The position numbers and the translations under genes are program-made. A stretch of 64,000 nt of DNA from a virus. Positions 3-52,333 of the stretch are shown here, in pieces. Numbering within the stretch: position 1 is the first letter of the stretch; the number at the start of each line of letters is the position of its first letter. The notes beneath the pieces were generated by a model. The model was not told the DNA's origin. It made no database searches and was given only the letters and a program-made list of their open reading frames with translations. The stretch lies in IMG/VR virus record IMGVR_UViG_3300037067_015055. The stretch is one strand, 5' to 3'.

Positions 3-542
3 TTGGTAACAGGATATGACCAATACTTCAATCCACGTCGAAGTGATGGTAAGATTTTGGTTCGTTTTGATCCAACCAAAGAAGATCTCAAGCGCGAAGA
101 TCCTGGTATCGAGAATTCCTGCATACCGAATTGCTGGACTTTAGTAACACCAACAATCAAGGATGGAGATTTTATAATACGGTTTAATCAGGATGGGACT
201 GAAGAGTGGCGTTATGAGATTATTGATGTAGATAGAAATAGGACAGCTCTTCAAGAATCCGGCCGCCAGAAGTTCACTGCAGTGCGTGTGCGCAAGACAG
301 ATCCTATTTGCCAAGTTAGATCTATTCGAGATACAAGTACTCTTCCGTCAGAGATTCTCACTTCGATTGGGATGGTACCTGGGCCAGGTGGTATTCTTGC
401 CCATATGCATCGTATAACTCTAGTAAATGGGATTTGTTTAAGTCAACTTACCAGTGTAGATCAGGGGCATAATCACCAAGTGGACAGCAATAATATTGTT
501 GGAAATGTTTTAGGTCATTCGCACAATATAATCATTCCATAA
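3..542 (+). CDS. C-terminal part of a tail fibre / receptor-binding protein (gene starts upstream of window); three HxH motifs (HMH, HNH, HSH) in last ~60 aa
   Basis: ORF runs from window edge; HxH triplets resemble metal-binding needle tips of T4 gp37/gp12-type fibres; sits directly upstream of other fibre genes. Confidence 0.5.
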   Translation: MVTGYDQYFNPRRSDGKILVRFDPTKEDLKREDPGIENSCIPNCWTLVTPTIKDGDFIIRFNQDGTEEWRYEIIDVDRNRTALQESGRQKFTAVRVRKTDPICQVRSIRDTSTLPSEILTSIGMVPGPGGILAHMHRITLVNGICLSQLTSVDQGHNHQVDSNNIVGNVLGHSHNIIIP

Positions 543-1965: not shown

Positions 1966-4900
1966 ATGATAAGATATCCAAATTCATTAGATAATGATGT
2001 GACAATCGTGAGGATTGATGATAATCTCTCAGAGCTTGGTTCGTCCGCTATCAATCAATTGAGAGAGGCTGTTTTTTCGATTGAGAAAACTTTAGGATTG
2101 AATCCACAAGGTTCAAAATCAAGCGTAAATGATCGCATCTCTGTACTTATTGGACCAGATGGAAATCCAAAAGCGGAGGCGCTCCAAGCGATTGGGTTAG
2201 TGACTCTACCAATTACAAATAATCAAGTTGCCAACAATGCCGGAATCAAAGAAGTAAAATTAGATTTGAATTTTAGTACGGCTTCGCTACACTCAAATGT
2301 TGTATCACTGCAATCTAGTGTTGATATTGCTCAAGCCCTTCTGGCCGAGGAAAATGCCAATTTCTTGACTCATATTTCTGGTGGTTTGTTACTGCTAGAT
2401 AATCTAACATCAGCAAGACATGTTGCGAGTCATATTGATATCAATGCCATTCCGACAGATTCTCGCGATACATATACATGGGATGGTTTACGTGATACGG
2501 ATCATAATCTACGACCAGCTACTCAAGTAGCTGAGGCACTTCTTGAAATCAACAACGAATTGGTAGGACATGAAAATGCCACTATCGCACTTGTTCACCC
2601 AGCGACAGCTATTTCTGTAGACACATCTACTTTCACACAACTGCCGGCATACTTGACCAATGTACAAGAAGCCTTGGGATTTGTGGATAACCAGGAGACT
2701 TTATCTTCAGGTGTGGATAGATCTACGATGAATGCCAATGGTATTCCTAGAACAGCTCGTATTCAAAATTTACAGCGTGATGGATATACTATAAACGTTG
2801 TTCCTCCAACTAAGATTCATGCCTATCTAGCAGAACCTAGTAAAATAGCTCCACATGACAATATCAATAATGGTGATGATGTCATTAAATTCTTACCAGA
2901 CAATACGAATTTTGTATTTGATTCTCTATTTACTAATGTTAGGGTTGGTGATATTCTTCGTCTTAACTACGGAAATGGAATAGAGACTTCATATCCAATC
3001 ATGTCTATTAGGTTTTTGTCAGGATCTGATTGGTCAGTGAGGGTAAACGCCAACAATATGTTTGATACTGGTGATGGATACGAAGGTTATGCCAGAATTG
3101 ATCGTCCAAATTTCGATATAAACACATGTGGTGTTTTGGCAGCTGCTGGTGTTGTACCAAGTATATATTCTAGTCAATCATTTTTCGATACCATTATTCT
3201 CGGTAGCCCAAGAGGAGCTACTGCAGTAGGTATTGGATTTGATCCTGGGGTTATTAATGCTCTTCATTACAATCTATACCTTAGACTGTATCCGACTGGT
3301 AATAAAGATGTGTTCTATGATCTTCCAGCTATTGATGTTAGTGGAAATCAAGGGGTTACACCAGGGTATTACAATCTTGATATTGTGGTGGAGAATACCA
3401 ATAAAATGTTGAGATTGTCAGGTTATAATTACCGATTTATTGCTTTCGCTCACAAAGGTGAGTTTGGCATTATGCTAGCAGATGATTATAATGGGTCCTC
3501 ATTCTCTATTATTTCTGGTCAAATTAACTACATTACAGGAAATATTGAACAAGGTTCATATGTCAATAACATTATTGGAGATACCACTGATCAATACGAT
3601 GCGTTAGGATTAGGCTTTAGCCGATCTGGTTTCGCAACTCCGGTTATGTCTCGTTTGGGAGTGAGCGAACCTTACCCAACAACAATTTCTGCTTCTAATT
3701 ATTCCACACTCATCATTACTCCAGTAAGTGGTCGTAATGTAATTATAAATGGGAATAGAAGAGATTCTTTAGCTACGCCAAGATTTACAGAAGGCGATGG
3801 TTATTGGTCTGCTATTGTTACTAACATTACAGCAGACATACCTCATAATACAAATTTTGTTACATATTCAATTCCATTTGATCTAGCAACTGAAGACTTA
3901 GCTCCTGGCAAGACTATTGTGGTTCAATCAGATACACCAGGAGATACGACAATTAATTATTATGGGCGATTCATCATTGATAGTGTTTCGTTCTCGTGTA
4001 CTGGTGCTGGCCAAACCAATATCACTGTGTTGAACAGCATTCATGGTACGGCAAATCCAGCTCAAGCCCCACTTCCATTACAATCGCGTGTTCGTGTATA
4101 CTTCTCAGATGATTCTGTGATGTTTAATATTGGAAATATGGTTGGGGCAGAATTATCAGATCCAACTGATTATCATCATTATCATGAAGTTTTTGTAAAT
4201 GATATTGGAAAATCAGTGGCGGTTGAGCGCGCTAGAATGGCTCATACCGATAGTGGGCCTGTACCAGGTAGTGGTAATATAGGTTCATTGTCTTGGAGAA
4301 TTAGGAGAGTATCTCCCAAGCTTACAGGCGAGCGTGTTGGAGTTACCGATTTCCGTAATTTCATTAAGCTACGCATTGCGGGTTGGAATGCTACAACTGG
4401 AGAATTTAATCTTTATCTGGTATCATTGGATGGGTTTACAAGTGGTCCAGCTGCTAAAGCGAAGAAAAATCATGTAGTCAGAGTTTACGACAAATCAGGT
4501 GTAAATTTCATTGATATTGAATTTAGGGAAACGTATGGAAATGCAACTACAATGCCAATGGGAACTGTTGCAATTGAATTATTCCCAACACTTAAAAATA
4601 ACGATGAATATTTTGCTGTAGCTGGTGTAAGTCATGATGGTTTTGTTTTCAAATCTATCACTGACCTTAGAGATTTTGGAACCATATCCGAAAGTAATTT
4701 AGGAGATTCAGCGATAAAATTCATTGAATCTGGAGAGCGTTATCTTCATGCTAACGGTATTATTAGAGGATTTAAATTCATAAGCACAGAAAATTACAGA
4801 TTATCATTCAAAGGTGGTTTAGCTCTAGTTAATGGTTCTTTTGTACCTATGGATGCTACAAGTGTTGGTGTTCCAACTACCAATGGAGAGTACTTTATTT

Positions 4901-7260
4901 GTGTTACCGACACCGGTCAGTTGATATCGATACGTAAAGATAACGGAAGTAATCCTTTGAACTTTATTGAGGCATTGACGTTCAAAGAAATTGTAGATAA
5001 CAGAAAGGATCTTACAATTATTTACAAAGCTACAGTGAGTGGTGGAGTTGTTTCGCCATCTGATGCTAGAAGGTTTGTTGTAAATCAAGATCTTGGGATT
5101 AATAGTTGGGCGTATTCTGATGCTAATTCTCAGAGTGGTTATGATGACGGCAATCCTAGTAATGTCAACTTTATAACTCCAGAAGCCTTAATGAACTGGG
5201 TTAATGAGTATCACATTAAAGAAGTTAAGGTTAAGGACGTGATTCTTAATTACGGCCTTACACTAAACTTTACCAGTCCTGTTAAACTAATTGGTGGTTC
5301 ATATGTAATTTATGAAGCCCGGGGACTAGCTTTCACTAGCGGAAATTGGACTATTGATGATGCGGATATTACATACACACCAGTCCATCATTTGTATGCA
5401 GACGCTAATGATGTGTTTTGTACTGGTGGTAATTGGGGTGGTATTGTAATTGATGGAATACCACTATCGGCTACCATCTCTGATTTTGGAATTGAAAACT
5501 CACGGTTCTATTCTACATCAGCTCAGCGAGCACCATTCGTGGCCATTTATTCAGCTACGGGTAATAGTTATAATCTGTTCCACAATGGTAGATTTGTGAA
5601 TAATACTTTCACTGATACGCAAGCTGATAGAGCGTTGTGTTATGCTTTTGTGAATAGCAATACTCCAGACGTCTCTATGTCATCTCCATATTTCCAAGAC
5701 ATCTTGGTATCTGATACTAAGATTAATGGACGTCAAGGAATTTTGATAGGTGGTCGTGCAACCCCCGCCGTGGAATATAGTGGATATACGGCCATGAATA
5801 AGGTTCTGATTGAGAACTTTGTCATCAAAAACAATCGCTTTGGTCTAATCGGATTCAATGTAGATAACTGGATTGGGTCTACAGAAGCCGGTAGATTCGT
5901 GATTGATAATAATAAAGCCGAACTAATATACTCTGGGTTTTCTGCCACAATGAACCCATTTGATAATAAATATGCATATGGCGTGAATTTTTCAACGGGA
6001 AATACAGTATCTTTTGTTGTACGCGATAATGATTGTTATTACCTAAAGATAGAGGCTTCTGCTGGGGCAAACTTATTGAAGTCAAGTGTAACTGGTAACA
6101 CAATCAAGCGATGGGATGATGTCCTTTACGATGCATTTGTTCCAGATGCATCGGAGGCACGTCGGGCGCTTGTGGTATTTAGCAATGGCCTCTATCCAGC
6201 AAATATAACCATCGCAAACAATACCATTGACGGATTTGATGGTTTGACATCTGGTTACATACACGGCATCTATACTCAAGGCCCTGGCTTGTCTATTACT
6301 GGAAACATCATCAACAACATTGCTGGCGTTGATTTAAATTCTACCCCAAATGGTTCTGGAAATGGCGGTTGGGGTATTTGGAGTTATGGAGGTGAATCCA
6401 GTACAATCGTAGGCAATACCATCAGCAAGCAAGATGGTGTGGGAATTGCTGGCTATATCTATTCAGATGCCACCGCTGCAATTTACGGCAATACTTTTAG
6501 CCATTTCAATTTAGCTTCTTGGTCCGGTTCTCCAGATCCTGATGGATACGGAGAACTTTCAAATGCCAACTTCAACGGAATTTATGGTCGGGGTTCGAAA
6601 TTCGCGGCTTGGAACGTAAATCAAGTGGTAAAGACGGTTCCAAATATGGCTTCTGGAATTCCTCTGTTCCATCTAGATCCTGGAGCTGGTACCGCTATTA
6701 CAAACACTGAAAACAATGAACGGTTGTTGTATGGAAGCCCTGCCACCAGCATTAACAAGGGCTTGAAATCGGTTCGTTTCTTTGAAGATCGTGGTTGGGT
6801 TTGGGAATGGAATGGTGGTGGACTGTCGACCAATGACGGTACTATTGGTTTGATTCTTCCGCTTTCTTCTGTAATACCAGATCGCGCTTACTTACTATCG
6901 GTCGAGATACACGTTTACTTCAGTGGGCCGTGGGATGTTCTCCCGAAAGATTCAGACCCAATCAATGTTTTCCCTCAAGTCTCTTTGGAACTTAATGGAA
7001 ATATGGTGGATAGCAAGAATCCATTCACCGATCCGGGAGGCCCATTCTACACCGATGTCACTCTCATATATCGATCCGACGCATTGATTACAGGGTTTGC
7101 TGGTACTCGGCCACCAGCTCCATTGGTAAAGGAGATGGTCGTGAAGATGAAGCAAGGCCTTCCAGGTGGAACTCCGGTTTTTGGAAGATGGCTAGGACCA
7201 ACTGGTTCTGGAACTCAAACGATGAGAATTGACCAGGTCGAGATCATGTATCTGTATTAA
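1966..7260 (+). CDS. Giant tail fibre/tailspike protein (1764 aa) with right-handed beta-helix (pectate-lyase-like) repeat region near C-terminal third
   Basis: Repeats of form NNTIDGF..ITGNIINNI..GNTISK..IYGNTF (nt ~6200-6500) typical of parallel beta-helix depolymerase/tailspike domains; uninterrupted 5.3 kb ORF. Confidence 0.55.
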   Translation: MIRYPNSLDNDVTIVRIDDNLSELGSSAINQLREAVFSIEKTLGLNPQGSKSSVNDRISVLIGPDGNPKAEALQAIGLVTLPITNNQVANNAGIKEVKLDLNFSTASLHSNVVSLQSSVDIAQALLAEENANFLTHISGGLLLLDNLTSARHVASHIDINAIPTDSRDTYTWDGLRDTDHNLRPATQVAEALLEINNELVGHENATIALVHPATAISVDTSTFTQLPAYLTNVQEALGFVDNQETLSSGVDRSTMNANGIPRTARIQNLQRDGYTINVVPPTKIHAYLAEPSKIAPHDNINNGDDVIKFLPDNTNFVFDSLFTNVRVGDILRLNYGNGIETSYPIMSIRFLSGSDWSVRVNANNMFDTGDGYEGYARIDRPNFDINTCGVLAAAGVVPSIYSSQSFFDTIILGSPRGATAVGIGFDPGVINALHYNLYLRLYPTGNKDVFYDLPAIDVSGNQGVTPGYYNLDIVVENTNKMLRLSGYNYRFIAFAHKGEFGIMLADDYNGSSFSIISGQINYITGNIEQGSYVNNIIGDTTDQYDALGLGFSRSGFATPVMSRLGVSEPYPTTISASNYSTLIITPVSGRNVIINGNRRDSLATPRFTEGDGYWSAIVTNITADIPHNTNFVTYSIPFDLATEDLAPGKTIVVQSDTPGDTTINYYGRFIIDSVSFSCTGAGQTNITVLNSIHGTANPAQAPLPLQSRVRVYFSDDSVMFNIGNMVGAELSDPTDYHHYHEVFVNDIGKSVAVERARMAHTDSGPVPGSGNIGSLSWRIRRVSPKLTGERVGVTDFRNFIKLRIAGWNATTGEFNLYLVSLDGFTSGPAAKAKKNHVVRVYDKSGVNFIDIEFRETYGNATTMPMGTVAIELFPTLKNNDEYFAVAGVSHDGFVFKSITDLRDFGTISESNLGDSAIKFIESGERYLHANGIIRGFKFISTENYRLSFKGGLALVNGSFVPMDATSVGVPTTNGEYFICVTDTGQLISIRKDNGSNPLNFIEALTFKEIVDNRKDLTIIYKATVSGGVVSPSDARRFVVNQDLGINSWAYSDANSQSGYDDGNPSNVNFITPEALMNWVNEYHIKEVKVKDVILNYGLTLNFTSPVKLIGGSYVIYEARGLAFTSGNWTIDDADITYTPVHHLYADANDVFCTGGNWGGIVIDGIPLSATISDFGIENSRFYSTSAQRAPFVAIYSATGNSYNLFHNGRFVNNTFTDTQADRALCYAFVNSNTPDVSMSSPYFQDILVSDTKINGRQGILIGGRATPAVEYSGYTAMNKVLIENFVIKNNRFGLIGFNVDNWIGSTEAGRFVIDNNKAELIYSGFSATMNPFDNKYAYGVNFSTGNTVSFVVRDNDCYYLKIEASAGANLLKSSVTGNTIKRWDDVLYDAFVPDASEARRALVVFSNGLYPANITIANNTIDGFDGLTSGYIHGIYTQGPGLSITGNIINNIAGVDLNSTPNGSGNGGWGIWSYGGESSTIVGNTISKQDGVGIAGYIYSDATAAIYGNTFSHFNLASWSGSPDPDGYGELSNANFNGIYGRGSKFAAWNVNQVVKTVPNMASGIPLFHLDPGAGTAITNTENNERLLYGSPATSINKGLKSVRFFEDRGWVWEWNGGGLSTNDGTIGLILPLSSVIPDRAYLLSVEIHVYFSGPWDVLPKDSDPINVFPQVSLELNGNMVDSKNPFTDPGGPFYTDVTLIYRSDALITGFAGTRPPAPLVKEMVVKMKQGLPGGTPVFGRWLGPTGSGTQTMRIDQVEIMYLY

Positions 7261-8117
7261 GCTGCATCGCAACACCAGGCATTCTTAAAGAGTGTAACGC
7301 ATCCAATTAATCCTGTTGGAGGAATCGAGGAGGGACACGCCCATCCCTCTTTTCCCGCCGCGCAATCGCTTGAGTATGCTCCACCGAAGTTCTTTACGCA
7401 GCGCGTGCCACAGACGTTTGGAGTGGGGACATCGCCCGCCCCGCTCCAATCTGCGCCTCCAGAAACTGTCTGTGGAGCTTGACCGCAATCCGTATTTGCC
7501 GTTCCATCGGTGACGCACGGGCCGCAAGAGAGCAATCCGCCGCAACCATCAGTGGCCGCTCCACAAGCGGTCGGCTTTGAGAGATTGCTTCTAATCGCGT
7601 CCCATGTAGCAATATCAGCACACGTCTTCGGAACGCACGTGCTCGTGGTGGTTGAGCCGCCGGTTGCTTCCGTTGTCGTGGTTCCATTGCCGCCGGTTGC
7701 GGTCGTAGTGACAACGTAACTACCACCAGTTCCAGTATCTGTGCTCGTGGTGGTTGAGCCGCCGGTATCTGTGTTCGTGGTTCCGCCGGTCGTAGTGATG
7801 ACAACGGAGCCACCAGTTCCGGTATCTGTGCTTGTGGTTGAACCGCCGATATCTGTGTTCGTGGTGGTTCCGGAGTTGCCGCCGATCGTGCTCGTTGCGG
7901 TTGTTTTGGTTGCAGTTGAATTGCCGCTGGTACCATTCGCAACTCTTGACCCACCGGTCGAACTATTTACTTTCGTAGAAGTAGATGTACTGCCAGCCAC
8001 ACCTTCCAGCTGGTCAAAGCATTCTTGGGTTGTACAGCCGGATTGAGTGGTTGTTGTGGAACTGCAAGCCATGGTGATCACTGCGAAAAGAACCGGTGAA
8101 ATGAAGTATTTGGTCAT
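7257..8117 (-). CDS. Secreted/lipoprotein-like Thr/Gly-rich protein with C-terminal Cys-rich domain (moron candidate); true start most likely ATG at 8117 (MTKYFISPVLFAVITMAC...), not the GTG-extended 8150
   Basis: Opposite strand to all neighbours; N-terminal signal peptide with Cys after hydrophobic core; strong RBS (AGGAG) 7 nt upstream of ATG 8117; GC ~58% versus ~40% surroundings; internal imperfect tandem repeats encoding TDTGTGGS-like units; >14 Cys in last 110 aa. Confidence 0.6.
   Translation of the reverse strand: MTKYFISPVLFAVITMACSSTTTTQSGCTTQECFDQLEGVAGSTSTSTKVNSSTGGSRVANGTSGNSTATKTTATSTIGGNSGTTTNTDIGGSTTSTDTGTGGSVVITTTGGTTNTDTGGSTTTSTDTGTGGSYVVTTTATGGNGTTTTEATGGSTTTSTCVPKTCADIATWDAIRSNLSKPTACGAATDGCGGLLSCGPCVTDGTANTDCGQAPQTVSGGADWSGAGDVPTPNVCGTRCVKNFGGAYSSDCAAGKEGWACPSSIPPTGLIGCVTLFKNAWCCDAA
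7550..7950. repeat. Imperfect ~70-90-nt tandem repeats inside the moron gene (encode Thr/Gly-rich units on minus strand)
   Basis: Repeated gtatctgtgctcgtggtggttgagccgccgg... units seen directly. Confidence 0.6.
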
Positions 8118-8130
8118 CTGAAATCTCCTA

Positions 8131-8173
8131 TTCTGACAGCACTCAACCACTATAACTTAGCTAGTTCTGACAG
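8131..8173. promoter_or_regulatory. Two copies of 9-bp direct repeat TTCTGACAG (8131-8139 and 8165-8173; CTGTCAGAA on minus) bracketing the moron promoter core: candidate operator sites
   Basis: Exact 9/9 repeat 34 bp apart, one overlapping -35 and one between +1 and RBS; core CTGnCAG is near-palindromic. Confidence 0.3.
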
Positions 8174-8177
8174 TCAA
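8149..8177 (-). promoter_or_regulatory. Sigma70-like promoter for the minus-strand moron: TTGACT (-35, plus coords 8172-8177) - 17 nt - TATAGT (-10, plus coords 8149-8154)
   Basis: Read on minus strand: gTTGACTgtcagaactagctaagtTATAGTggttgag...AGGAGatttcagATG; near-consensus hexamers with 17-nt spacer and correct distance to RBS/start. Confidence 0.5.
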
Positions 8178-8178
8178 C

Positions 8179-8213
8179 AAAAAAGACATGAAGACTTCAT
8201 TAAGAAAGTCTTC
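8179..8213 (-). terminator. Hairpin GAAGACTT / AAGTCTTC (8-bp stem, 8-nt loop, plus 8190-8213) followed on the minus strand by TTTTTT (plus 8179-8184): candidate rho-independent terminator oriented leftward, abutting the -35 box
   Basis: Perfect 8-bp inverted repeat seen directly; T-tract 5 nt after stem on minus strand; third partial copy agaagtctt at 8220-8228 could form alternative pairing. Confidence 0.35.
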
Positions 8214-8271
8214 GCACTAGAAGTCTTGTTCCGGCTCATAGGCCAATGAATCAATATTTTCATATTAATTT

Positions 8272-9226: not shown

Positions 9227-11695
9227 ATGAGTGCCAATATACCTGGAGGTTCCAGCGTTGTCCCTGGAACATACTCCGAAACCAGAACTATTCAGCGTGG
9301 TGTTAGCGTACCAGTTGGTAATCGTTTAGCCGTTCTTATCGGTGAGGGTCTGAAGGAAGAGGTTCTTGTTGGGTCAGCAAATGGTAAAGGTAATGATGGA
9401 TTTGATCTTACCTACACCACAACAAACGGTTCCGATGGCCGTCATTTCCTTTTGGGGAAAGGACAGTCTGCGGTAGCTCCTGTTGTTGTTAATAGAACTC
9501 GCCTTTTTAAAAATGGAATAGAACTAAAAGTGTTCGAACATCCGGTTGCTATTGGTGATACTTTTTTCGGATATGATGCCGAAGTAGATCCGTCAACTGG
9601 GCAGATTCTGTTGCTCGGCGCTTCGTTGGTAGATCAGGGAGGCAGACAATATCTCCCATCTGCAAGTAATTCTGGAACTGGAACAATTTCCGGTTTGGCA
9701 TTGGTTGATGATAATGCTCCTCCTGAGACCTGGACTATCCGTTGCTCTAGCATTCGTCGAGATTCGGGTGGATTGCCTGTCGATGGCTATGCCAAGTTCA
9801 TTGCTCGTGGCTCGGTAAGCGGAACTATCTTGGATGGGTACGGAAATCAAATCACATGGCAATCAAATGGACAAGTTGTTTCAAATGGTGTTTTGAGCTT
9901 CTCAATTTCAGAAGGAGGCAGTCCATTTATTGAGGGAGACAATTTCATCGTTAAGGTTCAAAGCGGAACTCTTGTAAGCGGCGATTCGCTAAGTGCACGT
10001 TATATTTCCTGGCTCGACCTTAATATCCCAGAGTTCTTCTCTGATTTGAATGCTGTTATTTCCAAGCACGGTCAGCCATCTGCCACCAATCGTATTTCGT
10101 TAGGTGCTCAATTAACATGGGCTAATAGTACGCCTGGTGTCTATACCATTCAAGCCAAGCCATCAATTCCAAGGCGCGTTTCGTATTCGTTGGTCACATC
10201 TTCTGATGGCCATAATGATATTGACGATGTCACGTTCCACCTACCTCTTGGAGTGACTCCTGATGTTGATTCAAATATCAATTTCTTCGTCACTGATCCG
10301 GTTACAAAAGTAGAAACTCAAATCATTCCAAATAAGGTGCCTTTCTATCTAGAGGACCCGGCTACCTTCTTGGATACACATGTATATTCCTATACTGTGG
10401 TTGAAGATGATTCAGTACAAAAGAGTGGGACCGATGGCGTATTGGTAGATGATGGCTATTTGGTAGACGGATATTATGCCGAACTAGCAAGTGCTACTGT
10501 GGCATTTGGTCTTGAGGATGTAACAGCTACTCGTTCGGTTGTGATTTTCGATTCACTCAATGGAAATGACGGAACATATGCGGTTATTTCAATCGTCAAT
10601 GGTAAGTTGAGATTTAAGAGAGACACTTCATTTGTGGATGAAACGTCTGTTCAATTTGAGGTTACTGATTCGGCATTCTCTAGTGCACAGATTCTTTGGA
10701 CGAGAGACATGGCCCTTAGCTTAGGCAAGTCACTTCGTTGCACATTGGTTGATGCGAAGGATGCAGACTTCTTCGATGCTGGATGGACTGAGGCATATGA
10801 GGCGGCAGAAACCATCAATATCGATATGGTAGTTCCTCTACCAAGTCAAACCATCAGCGCAATCTTCCAGAACGGAAAGGTACATGTTGAGACGCAGAGC
10901 GATATTCGCAACAAGCATGAACGACTTCTGTTCGTTGGAGCTATCCAGGGATTGACTCCGGATAACGTCATCGGAAACAAGCCGGCTGCGGTTGAGAATA
11001 TTGGTGTTCTAGAAGGAATTCAAGGAGATGATCCTACTGAGATTTTAGCTGGAAATATCGAGGATTTGACCAATTACGGTGTACAGGATGCGTTCGGCGA
11101 TTCGTACCGTGTAGTATACTTCTACCCAGACCAGATTGTGGTTCAAGCTGGATCGAGCAACATCTTAGTTGACGGCTTCTTTATCGCGGCTGCTGCGGCA
11201 GGTTATTTGTCTGGAAGTACGCAAATTCAAGAGCCACTTACCAACAAGAGATTATCTGGTTTCAGCATCCTTCGCAACAAGCTATTCTCACCATTGGTTA
11301 TTGAGAATATCGTAGCCTCTGGTATCTCGTTGCTAACGCCAGTTCAGGGTGGAGGAAACGTCATTTGGGGCAAGACAACCGTATCCTCACTGGAGCCTAC
11401 GGAAGAGGAAATCAGTATCGTGTTTATTCGTGATAGAATTTCCAAGGCAATGCGTCAAGCATATGCCCCGTATATCGGGCGAGCTGAGAGCCCAACCTTC
11501 AAAGCAACGTTGTTCGCAGTTGCTCAGGCTCTGATGCAAACGTTCATACAGCAGAGGTTGATCACTACATACGGAGGTTTGACTGTAAACAGAGATTCTG
11601 TAGAGCCGAGACAGTGGAATATTACTGTTGCGGTACAGCCAGTATATCCGACTAATTGGATTTATATTTTGGTCAACGTTGGTAGATTAGATTAA
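9227..11695 (+). CDS. Contractile tail sheath protein (822 aa)
   Basis: N-terminus MSANIPGGSSVVPGTYSETRTIQRGVSVPVGNRLAVLIGEG matches the conserved sheath N-terminal pattern (pGvY.e....i..vs.s.a.iGe); C-terminal ...NITVAVQPVYPTNWIYILVNVG resembles the sheath C-terminal strand; RBS GAGGTGA; followed by tube, chaperone and tape-measure genes. Confidence 0.85.
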   Translation: MSANIPGGSSVVPGTYSETRTIQRGVSVPVGNRLAVLIGEGLKEEVLVGSANGKGNDGFDLTYTTTNGSDGRHFLLGKGQSAVAPVVVNRTRLFKNGIELKVFEHPVAIGDTFFGYDAEVDPSTGQILLLGASLVDQGGRQYLPSASNSGTGTISGLALVDDNAPPETWTIRCSSIRRDSGGLPVDGYAKFIARGSVSGTILDGYGNQITWQSNGQVVSNGVLSFSISEGGSPFIEGDNFIVKVQSGTLVSGDSLSARYISWLDLNIPEFFSDLNAVISKHGQPSATNRISLGAQLTWANSTPGVYTIQAKPSIPRRVSYSLVTSSDGHNDIDDVTFHLPLGVTPDVDSNINFFVTDPVTKVETQIIPNKVPFYLEDPATFLDTHVYSYTVVEDDSVQKSGTDGVLVDDGYLVDGYYAELASATVAFGLEDVTATRSVVIFDSLNGNDGTYAVISIVNGKLRFKRDTSFVDETSVQFEVTDSAFSSAQILWTRDMALSLGKSLRCTLVDAKDADFFDAGWTEAYEAAETINIDMVVPLPSQTISAIFQNGKVHVETQSDIRNKHERLLFVGAIQGLTPDNVIGNKPAAVENIGVLEGIQGDDPTEILAGNIEDLTNYGVQDAFGDSYRVVYFYPDQIVVQAGSSNILVDGFFIAAAAAGYLSGSTQIQEPLTNKRLSGFSILRNKLFSPLVIENIVASGISLLTPVQGGGNVIWGKTTVSSLEPTEEEISIVFIRDRISKAMRQAYAPYIGRAESPTFKATLFAVAQALMQTFIQQRLITTYGGLTVNRDSVEPRQWNITVAVQPVYPTNWIYILVNVGRLD

Positions 11696-12510: not shown

Positions 12511-13170
12511 ATGAATAGAATTCGCAGCACAATTGGGGAAAGTAATTTCGTAGGTCAGGGGCAGAGGCGCTTTATAGTAGGTGAGGAGACTCAAGCGCCT
12601 CCACAACCTGTCCAAGAAATTAATCCTGCTGTAGCCGCTACGCTTCGTAGACAGGCACAGGAACAGCAAGAAGTGTTTGACCAACGCAGCTTGAATGAGG
12701 CGCGTCGGAGAATCGACATCATCACAGGGCTTGGTAGAATGACCAAGGAAGTGCCTGTGGAGGTTGCTGGGGGAAAGGTTGTGTTCACGCTCAGAACTCT
12801 CAAGACGTTTGAGCAGAATTGCTTAGCAGAGGTTATTGAGCAAGCTCAAAGATTAAGTACGGTTGATGGCCGTATGCTGTTTGCCCCAACGAGTTTGGCA
12901 AAAATCAAACTAGAGGCGTTATCTCATTCGTTGTTTTTGATTGATGGGCAATCTATAGATATTGTTCTAGGAACGTCCAACGCAGACTATGAAAGCCAAG
13001 TTATAGAGCGCAAGCATTTGATTGAGGAAATGGATCATGCGCTGATCAATTATCTATTTACCAACTATGAGACCCTCACTCAAGAGACCTATGATGGATA
13101 TGCTCCGAAGACCGTCGAAGAGGTTAAGGAGGTGGTGGAAACAATCTCCAAAAGTGGTGAGAACGGCTGA
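12511..13170 (+). CDS. Tail assembly chaperone (gpG-like), upstream ORF of a probable frameshift pair
   Basis: Position between tube and tape measure; 3' end overlaps an RBS-less ORF that ends exactly at the tape-measure start. Confidence 0.5.
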   Translation: MNRIRSTIGESNFVGQGQRRFIVGEETQAPPQPVQEINPAVAATLRRQAQEQQEVFDQRSLNEARRRIDIITGLGRMTKEVPVEVAGGKVVFTLRTLKTFEQNCLAEVIEQAQRLSTVDGRMLFAPTSLAKIKLEALSHSLFLIDGQSIDIVLGTSNADYESQVIERKHLIEEMDHALINYLFTNYETLTQETYDGYAPKTVEEVKEVVETISKSGENG

Positions 13171-13495
13171 GGGTCAGTTCATTCGACATCTCATGAAAAC
13201 ATTTGGCAAATTGCCAGATGATCCGTTCTATGAGAATATTAACGCATACCTAAAGGTATGGCTGTATGAAAGTTGGCTTCACGATCAAGAGCTAGAGGCT
13301 CAGAAGCTTAGAAACCAGGCTATTCTTATTGGATCTTTCTCCAATCTCGAAATGGCTCAAAGAATGATCCGAGACGAACATCCGAATGTGAAGGCTACAG
13401 ATCTTGATGAAACAAGCAAGAAGGTTCGCGAGAGAATTCTGGAGGCAGATAGAGTTGGTAAGAAGAGGCGCAAGAAACGCAAGGTGGTTAGCTAA
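13046..13495 (+). CDS. Frameshift extension ORF (gpGT-like) in the +1 (or -2) frame relative to 12511..13170; open from 13046, first ATG 13067, no Shine-Dalgarno; very basic termini
   Basis: About 125-nt overlap with upstream chaperone ORF; no RBS ahead of ATG 13067; ends TAATG overlapping tape-measure start; conserved tube-G/GT-TMP synteny of long-tailed phages. Confidence 0.4.
   Translation, partial: SIIYLPTMRPSLKRPMMDMLRRPSKRLRRWWKQSPKVVRTAEGQFIRHLMKTFGKLPDDPFYENINAYLKVWLYESWLHDQELEAQKLRNQAILIGSFSNLEMAQRMIRDEHPNVKATDLDETSKKVRERILEADRVGKKRRKKRKVVS
13148..13154 (+). other. Candidate recoding site CC-AAA-AGU (A4 run) in the chaperone overlap where a +1 slip of tRNA-Lys would join the two frames (gives ...SPKVVRTAEGQ...)
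   Basis: Manual codon walk of both frames; speculative. Confidence 0.15.
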
Positions 13496-15702
13496 TGGCT
13501 GATGAAATCATTGATCTGGAAAAGATAGAGGCCGTTTTAGAGAAGCTTGGTAGCGGCATCCAAGAAAAGTTACAGCCATATATTGAAAAGTTGAAGGAGG
13601 CCCACCTTACCACCTTAAACTTATCAGATGTTACTAAAGTACTTGGAGATGATGTTAGTAAAGCTCTAACAACTGCCCTTGATTCAATTAAGGGTTACGC
13701 ATCTATTTTTGGTGGGTTTGTAAAAGAGGCTGAGGAAGCAACTAATACTGTAAAAAACTTTGTTTCCGATTCAATCAATTCCATGGATCAAATCATGAAA
13801 AAGCATGGTTTGGTTGGGACTGACGTTGCCATAGCTTTTGAGCCAGCGATTGGTTTGATTGATAAAAGCATCACCGGAATGGGAAAATTAGGTGATGCCG
13901 GATATGAAGCTGGCTCCAAAATTTCAACTGGATTTAGTGCAGTTAAGCCTTTATTGGAGCGCGTATTTGATGGTAGCGGCGCTGCGATGAAGATGTTCTC
14001 AGCTATGAGTGAGGGAGCCTCTAATGCCGTTGGATTGCAAAGAGAATTACTTGGAGTTTCCATAGCTCAAGGTAGGGCTGCGGATGTGACCGATACAGCT
14101 TCTAATAGCTTCAAGAATATGCGTGAAGCATACAGAAACAATACGATTGCTGCATTTGAAACAGCACGCGCTACTGGCCAAACAGTTGGGGCTGTAATGG
14201 ATCTTGAAAGATCTGTAAAGCTAATCCCTAACGCTTGGGGAGATAAGGAAAATCTTGTTAAGATATCTCAACTAGCTACTGCTGGAATGAGAGAGGAGAC
14301 TGAGGTTGGTAAGCAATTGAGCGTTATGTACACGCGCCTTGGGACCTCTATAGAAGATTCTATTAAGAACCTTGCATACATACAGGACCAGGGTCGCAAT
14401 TCAAAATTGCAAATGGAGTCATTCAATGACACCGTAATGACTATCGCTGGCAGCTTCAAAATGTTGGGAGATAATACAGCGGCAACTACCAATTTTGTAA
14501 AGTCGTTTGATACTGCGTTTAGGGATAGTAACATTAGCCCAGAGGCGATGAAGCAAGTTATTGTTGGTATTGGCGAAGGCGTTCAGAAAATGGATGTCGC
14601 AAAACGAGCCTTTATTTCAGGAACTACTGGTGGTCCTGGTGGCTTGGCTGGGGCAATTCAAATGGACTATGCCATCCAGGAAGGACATGCAGATCAGGTT
14701 GTTAGAAAGACGATGTTGGCAATGCAAAGTCAATTCGGGGGTCAAGTTGTTACTCTAAAAGACGCTGCACAAAACCCAGCTCTGGCTGGTGAACTGTATA
14801 AGCAGGTTCAATATCTAACACAAGTAGCTGGCATAGCTAAAGATGATAAAGAAGCTTATAGAGTTTTGGAGGCCATGAAAAGTGGTGTTACTGATATTCT
14901 GAAGCCTGGAGCCGGAGAAGATGAGAAAGGTAATGCTCTAACGAGACAATTGGGAATGGGGCGTACCGAGCAGGAAAAAACCAATACAACTTTGATGCGC
15001 ATTCATCAAACCATGGAAGCTACCAAATTGAGGCAGGATGATATTTACCAGGTGATGCTAATCCAAGACCCAACTATTATGAAGAAGGTTGAGAAAATGG
15101 CTTCTAATATGGGCATCAATGTGGATTCCCTAACCAAAACTCAGGCGGAGCAGGCGTCGAGTAGTTATAATGTTCTTGGAACAACAGATCGGCAGGCTGA
15201 ACAAGAAAATAAAACTTGGTCGCATGCAAGAATGTATGGGAGTCTAAATCCAACTGAGGGCGTAGGTAAAATGCTTACTACTGCTGGAGGTAGTATTGGA
15301 ACCGCTATGCATAGGCTTACAAAAAATGAGTCACAAGATCTTGGGTCTAGTGCAAATGTTCCGTTGACAACCGGGGCTCATCGGGAAGGCCAGTATAATA
15401 TTCAACCAATGCATCGGCCACCACCTGGCCACGAAGCTGGAATTTCCACTGTAGCACATGGAGTCAAACCTAATTTAGGAATTCCAGATCTTCCGCCGTT
15501 ACAACTTCCGACAGCTAAGGGTAGTGGTGATGATGTTGCAACCGGAGATCTTCCTCCATTGAATATTACTCATTCATTTGAACCAATACAGATAGACATC
15601 ACTGGTCTTGGAGATAAAAAACTCACTAGATTTGTAGATGCTAGGGTTGAAAGTTTGAGATCTGAAGAAAGGGGCGGGGCGGCACACGGAGGGCTTAGAT
15701 AA
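13495..15702 (+). CDS. Tail tape measure protein candidate (735 aa)
   Basis: Immediately follows chaperone pair with TAATG overlap; long, low-complexity, probably helical protein. Confidence 0.55.
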   Translation: MADEIIDLEKIEAVLEKLGSGIQEKLQPYIEKLKEAHLTTLNLSDVTKVLGDDVSKALTTALDSIKGYASIFGGFVKEAEEATNTVKNFVSDSINSMDQIMKKHGLVGTDVAIAFEPAIGLIDKSITGMGKLGDAGYEAGSKISTGFSAVKPLLERVFDGSGAAMKMFSAMSEGASNAVGLQRELLGVSIAQGRAADVTDTASNSFKNMREAYRNNTIAAFETARATGQTVGAVMDLERSVKLIPNAWGDKENLVKISQLATAGMREETEVGKQLSVMYTRLGTSIEDSIKNLAYIQDQGRNSKLQMESFNDTVMTIAGSFKMLGDNTAATTNFVKSFDTAFRDSNISPEAMKQVIVGIGEGVQKMDVAKRAFISGTTGGPGGLAGAIQMDYAIQEGHADQVVRKTMLAMQSQFGGQVVTLKDAAQNPALAGELYKQVQYLTQVAGIAKDDKEAYRVLEAMKSGVTDILKPGAGEDEKGNALTRQLGMGRTEQEKTNTTLMRIHQTMEATKLRQDDIYQVMLIQDPTIMKKVEKMASNMGINVDSLTKTQAEQASSSYNVLGTTDRQAEQENKTWSHARMYGSLNPTEGVGKMLTTAGGSIGTAMHRLTKNESQDLGSSANVPLTTGAHREGQYNIQPMHRPPPGHEAGISTVAHGVKPNLGIPDLPPLQLPTAKGSGDDVATGDLPPLNITHSFEPIQIDITGLGDKKLTRFVDARVESLRSEERGGAAHGGLR

Positions 15703-23782: not shown

Positions 23783-25915
23783 ATGGTTTGCAATCCAGCT
23801 GATACTAACATTACGATGAGACCGCCAGGACCAGGCCCTTCCATTCCTGGTTTGGGGTTACCATTCTCTGTGCCTAAGATTCCTTTTCCTGACCTCTCTC
23901 TTCCAGAAGGCGTTCCAGAAGATTTGATTGAGTTGATCAATACCATCTTTGCTATGCTTCCTGGTGGTATCAAGTTTCAGCCAGACACAGACTCGATGAC
24001 TAAGGGAATTTGGGATGCTCTTGCTAGTTTATTCAATAAGCTAGCGCCGTTTTTGGGGATATATAAATTCTTTCAGGCATTGCTAAATATGATTCTGTGT
24101 ATCATTGATGTATTCTGTGCCCTAATGAATCCTTGGTCTACACTCCGAGCTGTTAGACGATTGTTTAAAAGATGTCTACCGGAATTCTTATCGTTATTTC
24201 CATGGATTGCTCTTTTGATAATGATCTTAGCATTGATACTTTTGATCATCGCATTGATCGAATATATAATCTCTGTCATTATTGCCTACATCAAGCAGAT
24301 TATTAAAAACCTGAAAATCTTAGCGCGAGCAATACAAGTACATGACGAGCAGGCGATTTTGGCGGCTGTTCAAAAAATATCATTTCTACTGTGTCTTATC
24401 GAGCAGTTATTCACAATACTTATGGGTATTGCGGCTCTGCTGGCTATCATTGAGCCTTTGATGGGTATTCTTGGCCGCTCCGTATGTAGTGGCGGAGATA
24501 GACATGGAAATGGGGCTGGGGATTGTTGTACACCAGATTTTTGCCCATCTTTCATTCGTAACAATCCAGATGGTTTGACGCAAACTACTGGGCGTCTGAT
24601 TTACCAGAGCGAAATTGATCCCCTGATACCTTCAGATCCTATATTTAATTTTATGAGAGGCGCGAACGTTCAGGCGATTCGGCCGCAGCGTTGGCAATTT
24701 GCAGATGATCATCCAACCGAATATAAGTTCTTGGATATTATAACTCCGTCTCCTGAATATGGTTTTATCTATTGGCCAAATAATGACGTGTTTACTAGAG
24801 ATGCGGCGCTAATTCGAGTTCCGTATAAATTAGATATGACTATGCGAATTGATCCTGCACATTTCGGAAATCCATCTGATATTAATGGTAGTCGTCTTTT
24901 TAATATTCGGGATGTTATTGTAACAACCAAACCAACTCAGACAGCAATAGCCTGGAATAATTCCGCTGATTATAGTACGACATTTTCTGGCTGCTTAAAC
25001 TTGGTTGGTGGTTTGGTATACGAATTTACCAATGATGGATATGTTCCATATCTAATCAATGGAGTACAAGCTTCTCTTGAGACTCTGATATCAAAGCCAG
25101 CTCAAAATATGGAGCAGCTGCCAGATTATGATGATGGTTATAATTTCCGAGATATCAATTATCAATTAAAAGTAAATCACGAAGTATTGATTCAATATGG
25201 TTTAATTGGATTGATGTGTCAACCAGATACTGCCTCAGAATCTGCAGTTCTGAATGCTGAGTATAATGATATGCGAAGCGTCATGGATAAGGTTGGCCCA
25301 TTGCCGGCCGTGAATGATACGATATCATGTTTGACACAAGCCCTTGCTAAATTCAGGGGAGATTTAAATGAGGATACGGCAGCTATCTTCCAACAAGAGG
25401 CGGTAGGCTGTCTGAATGCGCTTAAGGCTCAATCTCTTGATTTCTATGCTCGTGGTACGGCTGCTGCAACAGATCGTTTTTCTAGTGACTTCGAGTTGTA
25501 CCCAAATGTACAATTCATAAATAATGATATCAAGGTAACGGTTCGTTTACGAGATAAGTCTGGGAATCAGTTGGCTACCAATATTAATGCTGAAGCGGCG
25601 GATGGTTTGAGTTCTAAGATACGTGCAGTTCCTACTTTTGGAGAGGTGTCTGAATTTACCTACGATGGATATGGAGATTTTGTTGCTAAGTTACAAAGTA
25701 AGAATGCTGGTATAGGAGAAATTCGTGCGTATATTAATAATGAAGTGATTGCTTCTGTGCTCAATCGAGATGATGACAATGCTCCAAGTGAGATTGCTGA
25801 TCGCGTTATTACATATGAATTCATTGACAAGATATCTTACTCGTATCGTGGCGACGCAGGGGATTATGTCAAGAAGAAGTTTGATGAGTCTGATGTAGCT
25901 GAGGATGGTTCATAA
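23783..25915 (+). CDS. Polytopic membrane protein (710 aa; at least 3-4 strongly hydrophobic helices between residues ~85 and 225) embedded in the baseplate module
   Basis: Hydrophobic runs LNMILCIIDVFCALM, FPWIALLIMILALILLIIALIEYIISVIIAYI and FLLCLIEQLFTILMGIAALLAIIEPLMGIL seen in translation; Pro/Gly-rich N-terminus; about 480-aa soluble C-terminal part. Confidence 0.5.
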   Translation: MVCNPADTNITMRPPGPGPSIPGLGLPFSVPKIPFPDLSLPEGVPEDLIELINTIFAMLPGGIKFQPDTDSMTKGIWDALASLFNKLAPFLGIYKFFQALLNMILCIIDVFCALMNPWSTLRAVRRLFKRCLPEFLSLFPWIALLIMILALILLIIALIEYIISVIIAYIKQIIKNLKILARAIQVHDEQAILAAVQKISFLLCLIEQLFTILMGIAALLAIIEPLMGILGRSVCSGGDRHGNGAGDCCTPDFCPSFIRNNPDGLTQTTGRLIYQSEIDPLIPSDPIFNFMRGANVQAIRPQRWQFADDHPTEYKFLDIITPSPEYGFIYWPNNDVFTRDAALIRVPYKLDMTMRIDPAHFGNPSDINGSRLFNIRDVIVTTKPTQTAIAWNNSADYSTTFSGCLNLVGGLVYEFTNDGYVPYLINGVQASLETLISKPAQNMEQLPDYDDGYNFRDINYQLKVNHEVLIQYGLIGLMCQPDTASESAVLNAEYNDMRSVMDKVGPLPAVNDTISCLTQALAKFRGDLNEDTAAIFQQEAVGCLNALKAQSLDFYARGTAAATDRFSSDFELYPNVQFINNDIKVTVRLRDKSGNQLATNINAEAADGLSSKIRAVPTFGEVSEFTYDGYGDFVAKLQSKNAGIGEIRAYINNEVIASVLNRDDDNAPSEIADRVITYEFIDKISYSYRGDAGDYVKKKFDESDVAEDGS

Positions 25916-41199: not shown

Positions 41200-41403
41200 A
41201 TGAAAAAATTCATAACGTTATCATTCTTATTGTCGGCTTTGTTGCTATCATGTACCACAAACAAAACCAATCCTATCCCGCAGGTTGACGTTGGAGCAGC
41301 TGGAGCGGTTGGTATTGGTGGTGGTTTCAGCGCTGCTGGTACCTGTGATGTATCTGAAAGCGATGCTGGAGCTGGCGGAATTGCTGGAGTTGGTGGTAAG
41401 TAA
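41200..41403 (+). CDS. Small lipoprotein (67 aa precursor; lipobox LLSC; Gly/Ala-rich mature part)
   Basis: MKKFITLSFLLSALLLSC: classic signal peptidase II signal; starts 17 nt after fibre gene stop. Confidence 0.55.
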   Translation: MKKFITLSFLLSALLLSCTTNKTNPIPQVDVGAAGAVGIGGGFSAAGTCDVSESDAGAGGIAGVGGK

Positions 41404-41441: not shown

Positions 41442-42563
41442 ATGAGGATAAAGTTTCAACAATTTCTATTTGGCCAAAATCATTCATGGCAAATTGTAGG
41501 ACAGAATTTAGGTAGAGCACTTATAAAATTAGGTCATGATGTAGAATTTGTTTCAACAGACGGATTTGAACAGAGATTTGCTCCAAGTGACTTACTTCCT
41601 TTTGTTAGACAAAATCCTACTGGTCAATACGACTGTCAGATTAGTTATACAGCTCCTCATAACTGGCCCAACTATCTAAGTCATGGTACCAAGAACAGAT
41701 TTGGTATTTGGAATTACGAGTACAACAATAAAAGGTCAGTTGATAAGAACCAATCATTGCTGAAAGGATTTGCTAAGTTCTATAAATCAACTGACCTTGT
41801 TCTTCCATCCTCTAATTTCTCAAAAGAAGTATTCATTAATATGGGAATTCCTAATGAGAATATGGTAGTTGTTCCTCATGGAATTAACCTTCAAGATTTT
41901 GAGAGTGATAATACTTTCAAACTAAATACAAAAAAGACAAAAAAGATACTTCTCAACATTGCACAACCACATCGTAGAAAGGCTTTGCATCTTGCATTGA
42001 AGGCTTTTGGGCAGGCTTTTACCAAAGAAGATGATGTATGTTTGATAGCTAAGGTTTTCAAGCAGAACAAGAAGGATCATCCGTTTGACATTGACTTTAC
42101 TGGGTTATTTAAGACGTTTCAGACGAAGTTTCCTCTGCACGCTGAGGTTGAGTTTGTCTATTCATACATCCCTAATATCGCAGACTTGTATAAATCCTGT
42201 GATATAAATTTCTCAGCTACATTTGCTGAATGTTGGCACTTACCGTCTTTGGAAGCTCTTGCCTCTGGTATTATTAATGTGGTTCCAAGATATGGTGGAC
42301 AACTTGATTTCTGCAATGATGATAACTCACTTCTTATCGATGGAAATATTGTCAGAGCTCCCAGAGATCACCAGTATTGGGAGTCAACCCCTCACGCCGT
42401 GCATTTTGAAATAGATACAAATGATGCAGCTCGTAAACTACAGAGAGCAGTTTCTGAGTTTGATACTTTGAAGGCTAAATTTTCACCAAACATGACGGAG
42501 ACGGCCAAGAAGTTTACCTGGGAGAATGCAGCTAATCAGATTTTGGAGTTGTGCCATGATTGA
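41442..42563 (+). CDS. Glycosyltransferase, GT-B fold, family GT4-like (373 aa)
   Basis: C-terminal motif CWHLPSLEALASGIINVVPRYGGQLDFCNDDNSLLID matches the GT4/Glycos_transf_1 E..G.P..EAma.G.PvV....gG region. Confidence 0.65.
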   Translation: MRIKFQQFLFGQNHSWQIVGQNLGRALIKLGHDVEFVSTDGFEQRFAPSDLLPFVRQNPTGQYDCQISYTAPHNWPNYLSHGTKNRFGIWNYEYNNKRSVDKNQSLLKGFAKFYKSTDLVLPSSNFSKEVFINMGIPNENMVVVPHGINLQDFESDNTFKLNTKKTKKILLNIAQPHRRKALHLALKAFGQAFTKEDDVCLIAKVFKQNKKDHPFDIDFTGLFKTFQTKFPLHAEVEFVYSYIPNIADLYKSCDINFSATFAECWHLPSLEALASGIINVVPRYGGQLDFCNDDNSLLIDGNIVRAPRDHQYWESTPHAVHFEIDTNDAARKLQRAVSEFDTLKAKFSPNMTETAKKFTWENAANQILELCHD

Positions 42564-43260: not shown

Positions 43261-43287
43261 TTGCATATTTTTACAGGCAAGGAACGT

Positions 43288-43416
43288 ATGTTTAATCAGA
43301 GTAAAAAGATAACATTGAGTGATTGCCAAAGGTTTGCAAAATCTATAAATGGCGAATGTCTTAGTGATGTTTATTCATATCGGCTAATAACTATGGAGAT
43401 GCAAAATGGGTCATGA
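43288..43416 (+). CDS. Possible small protein (42 aa, two Cys) in the largest intergenic gap of the window
   Basis: ATG preceded by AAGGAA 4 nt upstream; otherwise unsupported. Confidence 0.25.
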   Translation: MFNQSKKITLSDCQRFAKSINGECLSDVYSYRLITMEMQNGS

Positions 43417-43509
43417 ATGGAAGGCTATAATAAATAGTGTTATAAATCTTGGAACTTGGCGTCCTCATTGTCGCGAGACCCCTCGCAAAATTACTGAGAG
43501 GATTTCTTT

Positions 43510-45254: not shown

Positions 45255-45385
45255 ACGATGCCTCTGTATAGGGAATATTTTCTAAGCAAAAAATACAGTT
45301 CTCAGAATCGTAGAATTATTCACCAGAGTTGTGGCGAATCACATTACCGGCTCTTATGGTTATTGCCCAAATGAAAGGAAAAATA

Positions 45386-46798: not shown

Positions 46799-46799
46799 T

Positions 46800-48374: not shown

Positions 48375-48397
48375 ATTCGTGGATATATCAAGAGTTT

Positions 48398-49009: not shown

Positions 49010-49010
49010 T

Positions 49011-49748: not shown

Positions 49749-49750
49749 GA

Positions 49751-50716: not shown

Positions 50717-50727
50717 ATTAGGAAATC

Positions 50728-52307: not shown

Positions 52308-52333
52308 GACTAGTACACGTTATATATTGAACT

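Follow-up and report, generated by a model that had tools for sequence, protein, structure and literature searches.

Only a handful of small model phages, such as T5, T1, and the lambdoids, are known to couple an exclusion lipoprotein to a receptor-binding gene. The llp gene of phage T5 adjoins the receptor-binding gene and encodes an exclusion lipoprotein that is made shortly after infection and protects T5 progeny from debris (PMC9586334; bioRxiv 10.64898/2026.03.26.714494), and in Ltp of Streptococcus phage TP-J34 a Ser-rich spacer joins a lipid anchor to an effector domain (PMC3952083). Here we analyze a minus-strand gene (7257–8117; ATG at 8117, TAA at 7259–7257) in a 64,000-nucleotide stretch of viral DNA from the IMG/VR virus record IMGVR_UViG_3300037067_015055 (hereafter the window), which, judging from its translation and its homologues, encodes a 286-aa lipoprotein precursor and runs convergent to a giant fibre-like gene of 1764 aa (1966–7260, plus strand). 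The window derives from a very divergent myophage whose IMG/VR relatives are contigs of 208–392 kb; no close cultured phage was found. The interest of the locus lies chiefly in the co-variation between the fibre tip and the lipoprotein, which makes a concrete exclusion hypothesis testable.

The locus resembles those of Llp and Cor (T5; T1, phi80, HK022, and N15) in that a phage lipoprotein gene adjoins a likely host-recognition gene, in that cysteine chemistry matters (Llp needs its one disulfide), and in early expression, which is predicted here from a host-type promoter. Whereas Llp and Cor are ~60 aa long when mature, have one disulfide and no tether, and share a known beta-rich fold with which they bind FhuA from the periplasm, the protein described here has 286 aa, a 142-aa tether, and a 14-Cys domain, matches neither of them in sequence or fold, and is encoded by a jumbo myophage. 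With Ltp the likeness is one of architecture only, namely an anchor, a Ser/Thr-rich spacer, and an effector displayed outside the cytoplasmic membrane. In Ltp, the effector comprises two helical repeat domains with the tape measure protein as their target, and the gene belongs to the lysogeny module of a temperate siphophage, with expression from the prophage; in contrast, the effector here would be a disulfide-rich domain of apparently new fold, encoded in a tail module, with no sign of lysogeny and no match to the Ltp family. By analogy, the lipoprotein could tentatively be placed as one that works like Llp and Cor, is built like Ltp, and belongs to neither family.

A lipoprotein family with a 14-cysteine domain

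The precursor begins with MTKYFISPVLFAVITMA↓CSS, in which a positive N-region and a hydrophobic core are followed by the lipobox ITMA↓C, so that the sequence pattern defines a signal peptide (8064–8117, minus strand) with a predicted lipidation site at Cys18 and Ser at position +2. Precursors of bacterial lipoproteins (PROSITE PS51257-type; Lgt/LspA substrates) are recognized by a short positive N-region, a hydrophobic core, a lipobox [LVI..][..][AGS]C within ~35 residues, and no acidic residue before the Cys, and MTKYFISPVLFAVITMA↓C18 has all of these features. Lipidation at Cys18 and cleavage by signal peptidase II are predicted from this lipobox, in keeping with the signal-peptide or lipoprotein-type N-terminus noted in a first-pass annotation of the window. 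Residues 19–160 (7638–8063, minus strand) form the low-complexity Thr/Gly/Ser linker that this annotation had also described; it is 142 aa long, consists of 70% Gly/Ser/Thr, and is rendered disordered by AlphaFold (pLDDT <50). Two ~30-aa repeats can be read off the translation of the linker, which also includes a short CxxxxC motif (C28, C33), and TRF found no DNA-level tandem repeat in the linker DNA. The C-terminal domain (residues 161–286; 7260–7637, minus strand) comprises 126 aa and is Cys-rich as proposed, with exactly 14 Cys instead of the more than 14 first reported (17 in the whole precursor), a number consistent with ~7 disulfides. Listing of non-nested open reading frames (ORFs) of at least 100 aa bore out that this is one of only two minus-strand genes in the window, the other encoding a GT10 fucosyltransferase (47457–48374).

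A word-indexed search recovered 12 homologues (E 1e-29 to 1e-51), and an exhaustive search of 1.84 billion representative proteins with a profile of the C-terminal domain gave 66 at E<1e-3. Approximately 50 metagenomic relatives of 180–320 aa share a common plan of lipobox Cys, G/S/T-rich linker, and 14-Cys C-terminal domain, and this recurring three-part architecture, along with a conserved genomic slot, contradicts the possibility raised earlier that the gene is an artefact, absent or frameshifted in relatives. The lipobox Cys falls at position 14–22 of the evident start in almost every family member below 330 aa and is followed by Ser or Gly, never Asp, while the linker varies between 47 and 177 aa and is conserved in neither sequence nor length. 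In an alignment of 45 sequences with 29–64% identity to the window protein, the lipobox Cys and 12 of the 14 domain Cys never vary, and each of the remaining two is kept in at least 90% of the sequences. The gene encodes a genuine, previously undescribed phage lipoprotein family: no match to the lipoprotein was found in Pfam, PHROG, NCBIfam, or PADLOC or in a profile search of PDB sequences, and blastn and tblastn against 50,697 GenBank phages returned nothing for it.

AlphaFold modelling of the Cys-rich domain with the 45 sequences yielded a small, mostly beta structure (pLDDT 90.8, pTM 0.83) with no relative in PDB or BFVD, and the model indicates a new fold. A first AlphaFold2 model, of the full-length protein with 13 sequences, was poor (pLDDT 53), and the Foldseek search made with it is meaningless. 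Only the first subdomain has a detectable bacterial counterpart. The first ~55 aa of the domain (CxPKTC...CG..DGCGG.L.CG.C) are homologous to one unit of a bacterial Cys-rich repeat (hhalign probability 96.7%, E 3e-10, 53 columns), so that membership of the repeat family, taken as at least one copy of the ~45–55-aa unit, holds for this subdomain alone. Multi-stretch hits were also among the results of the exhaustive profile search. The bacterial proteins with the pattern CxPxTC...CG..DGCGG.L.CG.C (for example P0036, P0039, P0060, and P0062) differ in having 6–10 tandem repeats and in lacking the second half of the phage domain (NxCGxxC...W.C...PP...WCC), which is specific to the phage lipoprotein family; they belong to no Pfam family, and P0062 lies in an ordinary bacterial chromosomal context.

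Slot, co-variation, and transcription signals

The gene order in the relatives is a giant gene of 1,700–1,800 aa (plus strand), the lipoprotein gene (minus strand), an optional gene of 278–298 aa, a 268-aa gene (plus strand), and the sheath gene (plus strand). Slot and orientation are kept in the window and in the related loci L001, L003, L006, L007, L009, L010, L015, L017, L019, L104, and L105, and the count of phage loci with this arrangement is thirteen in all. The slot is filled in 12 of the 15 relatives examined, including very divergent ones; some of its members score just E~1e-4 to 1e-6 against the profile, and the same slot is occupied among phages whose lipoprotein domains share 19–37% identity. 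In the window, the two convergent genes end in overlapping stop codons within the TTAA at 7257–7260 (both strands; read on the plus strand), as described in the first-pass annotation, and the same 4-nt overlap recurs in L001, L003, L006, L007, L019, and L104. The overlap extends to 17 nt in L010, and in L017 a 49-nt gap separates the two stops. In L013 and L014 the slot is empty, with the giant gene ending 33 nt before the 268-aa gene and its C-terminus differing after aa 1514, while L018 lacks both the lipoprotein and the giant gene at the site. The extra plus-strand gene of 278–298 aa, present in L003 (1243–2079), L015 (4573–5469), and L017 (5150–5986) and not in the window, marks the slot as a general site of gene gain and loss.

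Homologues also occur elsewhere. P0009, P0010, and P0012, with 60–61% domain identity, are co-oriented with small genes (cREC_REC, RadC, RLIG1) at loci that have nothing else in common with the window, and the close, paralogue-like copies of this identity in L002 (7694–8470) and L008 (2678–3322) have such a setting, are preceded by a terminator-like hairpin, and show no evident sigma70-type promoter.

The giant protein has no family match. A sub-threshold match to the Pfam family Beta_helix (E=0.011) covers aa 1413–1514, residues 29–63 match the N-terminal end of a 2,078-aa protein annotated as a tail fibre in the Bacillus jumbo phage KLEB27-3 (E=8e-3), and the C-terminal third contains repeats read as typical of parallel beta-helices. 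Identity among the giant proteins declines along their length, from 65–84% in the first 100 aa down to 7–50% at the end, the hypervariable C-terminal part corresponding roughly to 5266–7260. These features, each of them weak, point to a fibre or tailspike and make a fibre-like host-recognition protein likely. The first-pass annotation had placed the lipoprotein gene beside receptor-binding genes: it does abut this gene, being adjacent and convergent to it in at least 12 loci, but the receptor-binding role is deduced from weak signals.

Co-variation of the two proteins was evaluated on 28 pairs from 8 phages with an exact Mantel test (40,320 permutations). Identity between lipoprotein domains correlates strongly with identity over the C-terminal 450 aa of the giant protein (r=0.91; 31/40320), as compared with r=0.33 for the sheath (2365/40320), and the partial correlation with the giant C-terminus given the sheath is 0.90. 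The loci L010, L015, and L017 illustrate this pattern: the sheaths are 80–82% identical, the 268-aa proteins 70–77%, and the N-terminal and middle parts of the giant protein 46–73%, as against 11–33% for its C-terminal ~700 aa (21–26% for the giant C-termini in the co-variation comparison) and 25–37% for the lipoprotein domains. Because they diverge together and independently of the sheath, the distal part of the giant protein and the lipoprotein form one hypervariable block in a conserved backbone. As a pattern in sequences, the co-variation is compatible with functional coupling and also with simple linkage in a recombination hot spot.

A sigma70-type promoter precedes the gene (8149–8177, minus strand), identified by its motif and by comparison with relatives and consisting of a -35 element TTGACT (8177–8172), a 17-nt spacer, and a -10 element TATAGT (8154–8149). 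It matches 10 of the 12 sigma70 consensus positions. The pattern TTGACN-16..18-TANNNT occurs 9 times across the window, no more often than in shuffled sequences (10.7), and a lone match is not significant; the weight of the promoter therefore derives from its conservation in relatives and not from the single match. TTGAC[ATG]-17-TAnnnT precedes the gene in the window and in L001, L003, L006, L007, L009, L010, L012, L015, and L017, and a sigma70-like promoter was found in all eleven loci whose upstream region was read, the window and ten relatives, although most intergenic regions among these loci do not align. In L010 the -10 element lies just 8 nt before the ATG, which suggests a leaderless mRNA. 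No such promoter was found at the starts of the plus-strand structural genes of the window. A Shine-Dalgarno sequence, AGGAG, is located 7 nt before the ATG (8125–8129, minus strand) and is also present in L001, L003, L006, and L007. Both the near-consensus promoter and the strong ribosome-binding site of the first-pass annotation thus stand.

On its upstream side, the -35 element is abutted by an inverted repeat, GAAGACTT-N8-AAGTCTTC, followed by T6 (8179–8213, minus strand; hairpin 8213–8190), with 9 bp, a dG of -10.4 kcal/mol, and a z of -2.5. The hairpin and T-run that had been annotated as a leftward-facing terminator are indeed there, but they cannot terminate the lipoprotein gene because they are located upstream of its promoter; the element looks terminator-like, yet its position is the one expected of an operator, UP element, or insulator. 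The inverted repeat is a perfect palindrome with a third AAGTCTT copy 15 nt away, and GAAGACTT is unique in the window. Its core is kept in L003, L006, and L007 with no compensatory changes, a related GAAGATTCA occupies the promoter spacer of L001, L003, and L017, and the promoter region of the window (8131–8227) may contain an operator. A wider regulon for the GAAGACTT palindrome was considered and dropped on account of its single occurrence in the window. Repeat reading also identified two copies of a 9-nt direct repeat, CTGTCAGAA, on the minus strand, one in the promoter spacer (8165–8173) and one just before the ribosome-binding site (8131–8139), which is only partly conserved in L006 and L007.

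At the other end of the gene, L017 carries a strong bidirectional intrinsic terminator, AAAGCCCGGTGAAATCACCGGGCTTT (4043–4068), which is GC-rich, has 11 bp, and is flanked by T-runs on both strands. No terminator for the lipoprotein gene was found in the window, and the overlapping stop codons leave no room for one there or in the other overlapping loci. The conserved promoter and the bidirectional terminator of L017 therefore indicate an autonomous unit read by a host-type polymerase. On the opposite strand, a block CCGGCTCATAGGCCAA (8231–8246, plus strand) lies ~25 nt upstream of the ATG of the 268-aa gene, is kept in L003, L006, and L007, and may be a signal for the sheath operon; its interpretation as a late promoter was dropped, as it occurs once in the window.

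A putative exclusion lipoprotein and its rival explanations

Our preferred, if tentative, reading of these sequences is that the gene may encode a lipoprotein which is made early, is anchored in the envelope, serves exclusion or receptor masking, and is matched to the fibre tip. The host sigma70 RNA polymerase would transcribe the gene from its own promoter, antisense to the structural operon. Given this host-type promoter, the protein would most likely be made early, and late transcription of the convergent giant gene running across it would probably shut the lipoprotein gene down; we infer both the early timing and the silencing from the arrangement of the sequence. The precursor would be exported by the host through its Sec-type signal peptide, cut at the lipobox, and lipidated at Cys18. 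With Ser or Gly and never Asp at +2, the protein would be directed to the outer membrane under E. coli rules, while retention on the cytoplasmic membrane would be expected if the host is Gram-positive, the tether then reaching through the wall. The flexible 142-residue tether would then hold out a compact, disulfide-locked domain of 126 residues, and this domain would interfere with entry by the cognate fibre tip, masking or inactivating its receptor or entry route, so that the infected cell would be spared superinfection and the progeny kept from sticking to debris.

The first-pass annotation had proposed a role like that of T5 llp. The co-variation with the C-terminal part of the giant protein lends this proposal indirect support, but homology to Llp or Cor is unsupported, no sequence or fold match having been found. 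The paired absences are in line with a matched pair, as L013 and L014, which lack the lipoprotein, have a changed giant C-terminus and L018 lacks both genes. Several points weigh against an exclusion role. Neither the sequence nor the fold of the protein resembles that of Llp, Cor, Ltp, or a member of any defence or exclusion family. The co-variation could be mere physical linkage in a recombination hot spot, and adjacency to the fibre gene is not obligatory, as the 60–61% identical homologues sit elsewhere. The receptor-binding role of the giant protein is itself read from weak signals, and a fibre with a beta-helix points to a polysaccharide as its receptor, which makes masking by a tethered protein domain less obvious. 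Finally, the 14 Cys would require an oxidising compartment.

If the exclusion reading is true, receptor-coupled exclusion lipoproteins would extend to uncultivated jumbo phages by way of an unrelated family. Through co-variation, a host-recognition module could be matched to its cognate envelope factor from sequence alone, and such pairing could help to infer the host range and exclusion groups of metagenomic phages. The compact, confidently modelled domain is also suited to structural and binding studies.

The same co-variation would be produced, with no shared function, by a linked envelope accessory gene in a recombination hot spot beside the fibre tip, exchanged together with the tip and not working together with it. 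We consider this somewhat unlikely; such a gene might modify the cell surface, block unrelated phages or predators, or alter host physiology. Adjacency fits this explanation, as one recombination event replaces both genes, as do the presence of 60–61% identical copies in an early-like cluster away from any giant gene and the gain and loss of other genes in the slot (the 278–298-aa gene of L003, L015, and L017). However, the correlation is graded over the 28 pairs and does not merely separate classes, the fibre end is changed or absent at the site in phages that lack the lipoprotein, and the arrangement persists where lipoprotein domains are as little as 19–37% identical.

Graded co-variation is also what a protein–protein interface would be expected to leave, and the length of the tether would keep the domain at a distance from the membrane, so that the Cys-rich domain might bind the fibre tip directly, as a decoy or neutraliser on infected cells and debris, in place of binding a host receptor. 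The locus would then be a hypervariable two-gene cassette in a clade of uncultivated 200–400 kb jumbo phages, in which the tip of a ~1,800-aa fibre is paired with a cognate exported lipoprotein that binds the tip and neutralises sibling virions. Such a cassette would constitute direct self-recognition exclusion, without a precedent described in the literature searched, and we hold it to be doubtful, both for this lack of precedent and because the same co-variation follows from linkage or a shared receptor.

In spanins, the outer-membrane subunit is a lipoprotein whose cysteines matter for function, and the precursor described here has a lipobox and many Cys, which would be in keeping with a lysis component, o-spanin-like or otherwise envelope-disrupting, in the outer membrane. 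This is very unlikely for a 286-aa protein with a folded 126-aa domain, which has no C-terminal transmembrane helix and lacks the features of a spanin; its gene adjoins no inner-membrane partner gene, endolysin, or holin, and it has a host-type promoter in place of late co-transcription and is located in a tail module.

The first-pass annotation had regarded the gene as a foreign, high-GC moron, possibly expressed from a prophage. A recent acquisition expressed from a prophage for lysogenic conversion is nevertheless highly improbable. In anatomy the gene does resemble the lambdoid morons, with its own sigma70 promoter, an orientation opposite to the structural genes, the bidirectional terminator of L017, and insertion between genes of an operon. 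It is present in some relatives and missing from others (L013 and L014), and in L013 the giant gene is followed directly by the 268-aa gene. Its history differs from that of a moron, in that neither a foreign composition nor a sporadic distribution was found: the gene is old and syntenic across a divergent clade, in the same slot even at 19–37% domain identity, and its composition results mostly from amino-acid content. The coding sequence has 54.8% GC against a window mean of 40.8%, and not the ~58% first estimated; values of 57–61% are reached only in 200-nt windows between 7300 and 7900. GC content at second codon positions (GC2) is 0.60–0.72 in every copy, a consequence of the codons for Thr, Gly, Ala, Pro, and Cys, and the GC excess therefore comes mainly from amino-acid content. 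At third positions, a raised GC content (GC3) is confined to the window, L003, and L007 (0.51–0.63) and would suit a foreign origin, but GC3 follows the phage in L001 (0.32; locus 0.36), L009 (0.23; locus 0.36), and L010 (0.43; locus 0.51); synonymous sites are saturated at family distances. Composition and deep synteny together argue for an old resident gene, occasionally lost or moved, and against a recent import. Expression from a prophage finds no support in the scan of 185,579 bacterial species genomes, which used close-subfamily patterns only and recovered no copy of the lipoprotein domain, or in the nature of the related contigs, which are jumbo phages of 208–392 kb with a tubulin gene.

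A chance antisense ORF in a composition-biased region can be dismissed, even though low-complexity GC-rich sequence yields long ORFs in several frames here, because the lipobox and domain Cys (12 invariant, two nearly so) are conserved across the 45 sequences despite identity falling to 29%, the fold model is confident, and both the promoter and the ribosome-binding site are conserved.

Neighbouring features and the host

Downstream of the slot, on the plus strand, the window carries the sheath gene (9227–11695) and a baseplate-J gene at 28069. The tubulin/TubZ-like (PhuZ-type) gene (56619–59411, plus strand; 930 aa) contains an intein with a LAGLIDADG/Hom_end endonuclease inside its GTPase domain, and a UvsW-like helicase is also encoded in the window. 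An Rfam scan of the whole window returned nothing for the lipoprotein locus.

Signals bearing on the host are mixed. The best bacterial homologues of the DegT aminotransferase encoded in the window come from freshwater Bacteroidota metagenome-assembled genomes, with just 41–45% identity and no shared neighbours, while weak matches to cultured phages point instead to Bacillus phages. The canonical -35/-10 promoter and the AGGAG are unlike Bacteroidota signals. Shine-Dalgarno-like motifs precede 22 of 42 genes in the window, a count that favours no particular host.

The DegT gene belongs to a glycan-enzyme island (41442–56604) with ~9 glycosyltransferases (GT1/4, GT2, GT10, and GT11), two FkbM methyltransferases, and an NDP-sugar epimerase/dehydratase. 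The first-pass annotation had suggested that this island O-glycosylates the Thr-rich linker. The island products are soluble (glycosyltransferases, methyltransferases, and sugar-nucleotide enzymes), no flippase-like or oligosaccharyltransferase-like membrane protein was found in the window, and the island has no multi-pass membrane protein. The suggestion is therefore unsupported, as no membrane protein that could flip the glycan or transfer it outside the cytoplasm was found. Two homing-endonuclease-type genes lie within the island, one of LAGLIDADG type (49745–50716) and one NUMOD3/TnsA-like (54795–55682). Directly after the LAGLIDADG gene, the GT11 ORF (50728–51426) covers only positions 117–295 of its profile and may be a split or invaded gene.

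A second candidate lipoprotein of 67 aa (41200–41403, plus strand) begins with MKKFITLSFLLSALLLS↓CTTNK, is Gly/Ala-rich, and has GGAGAAAA before its ATG. The 994-aa gene that closes the tail/baseplate module ends 16 nt before this ORF, the glycan island follows directly, and the candidate appears to be co-transcribed with the late genes. No PADLOC match was found for this candidate, which could be a spanin-like or other envelope protein.

Within the tail module, ORFs of 219 aa (12511–13170) and 142 aa (13067–13495) overlap by 104 nt right upstream of a tape-measure-like gene (13495–15702, plus strand), a layout typical of a tail assembly chaperone produced via programmed frameshifting. In a 710-aa protein of the tail/baseplate module (23783–25915, plus strand), the stretch from residue 90 to 230 includes five strongly hydrophobic segments, which is unusual for a virion protein, and the 710-aa protein may be a membrane-inserting ejection protein.

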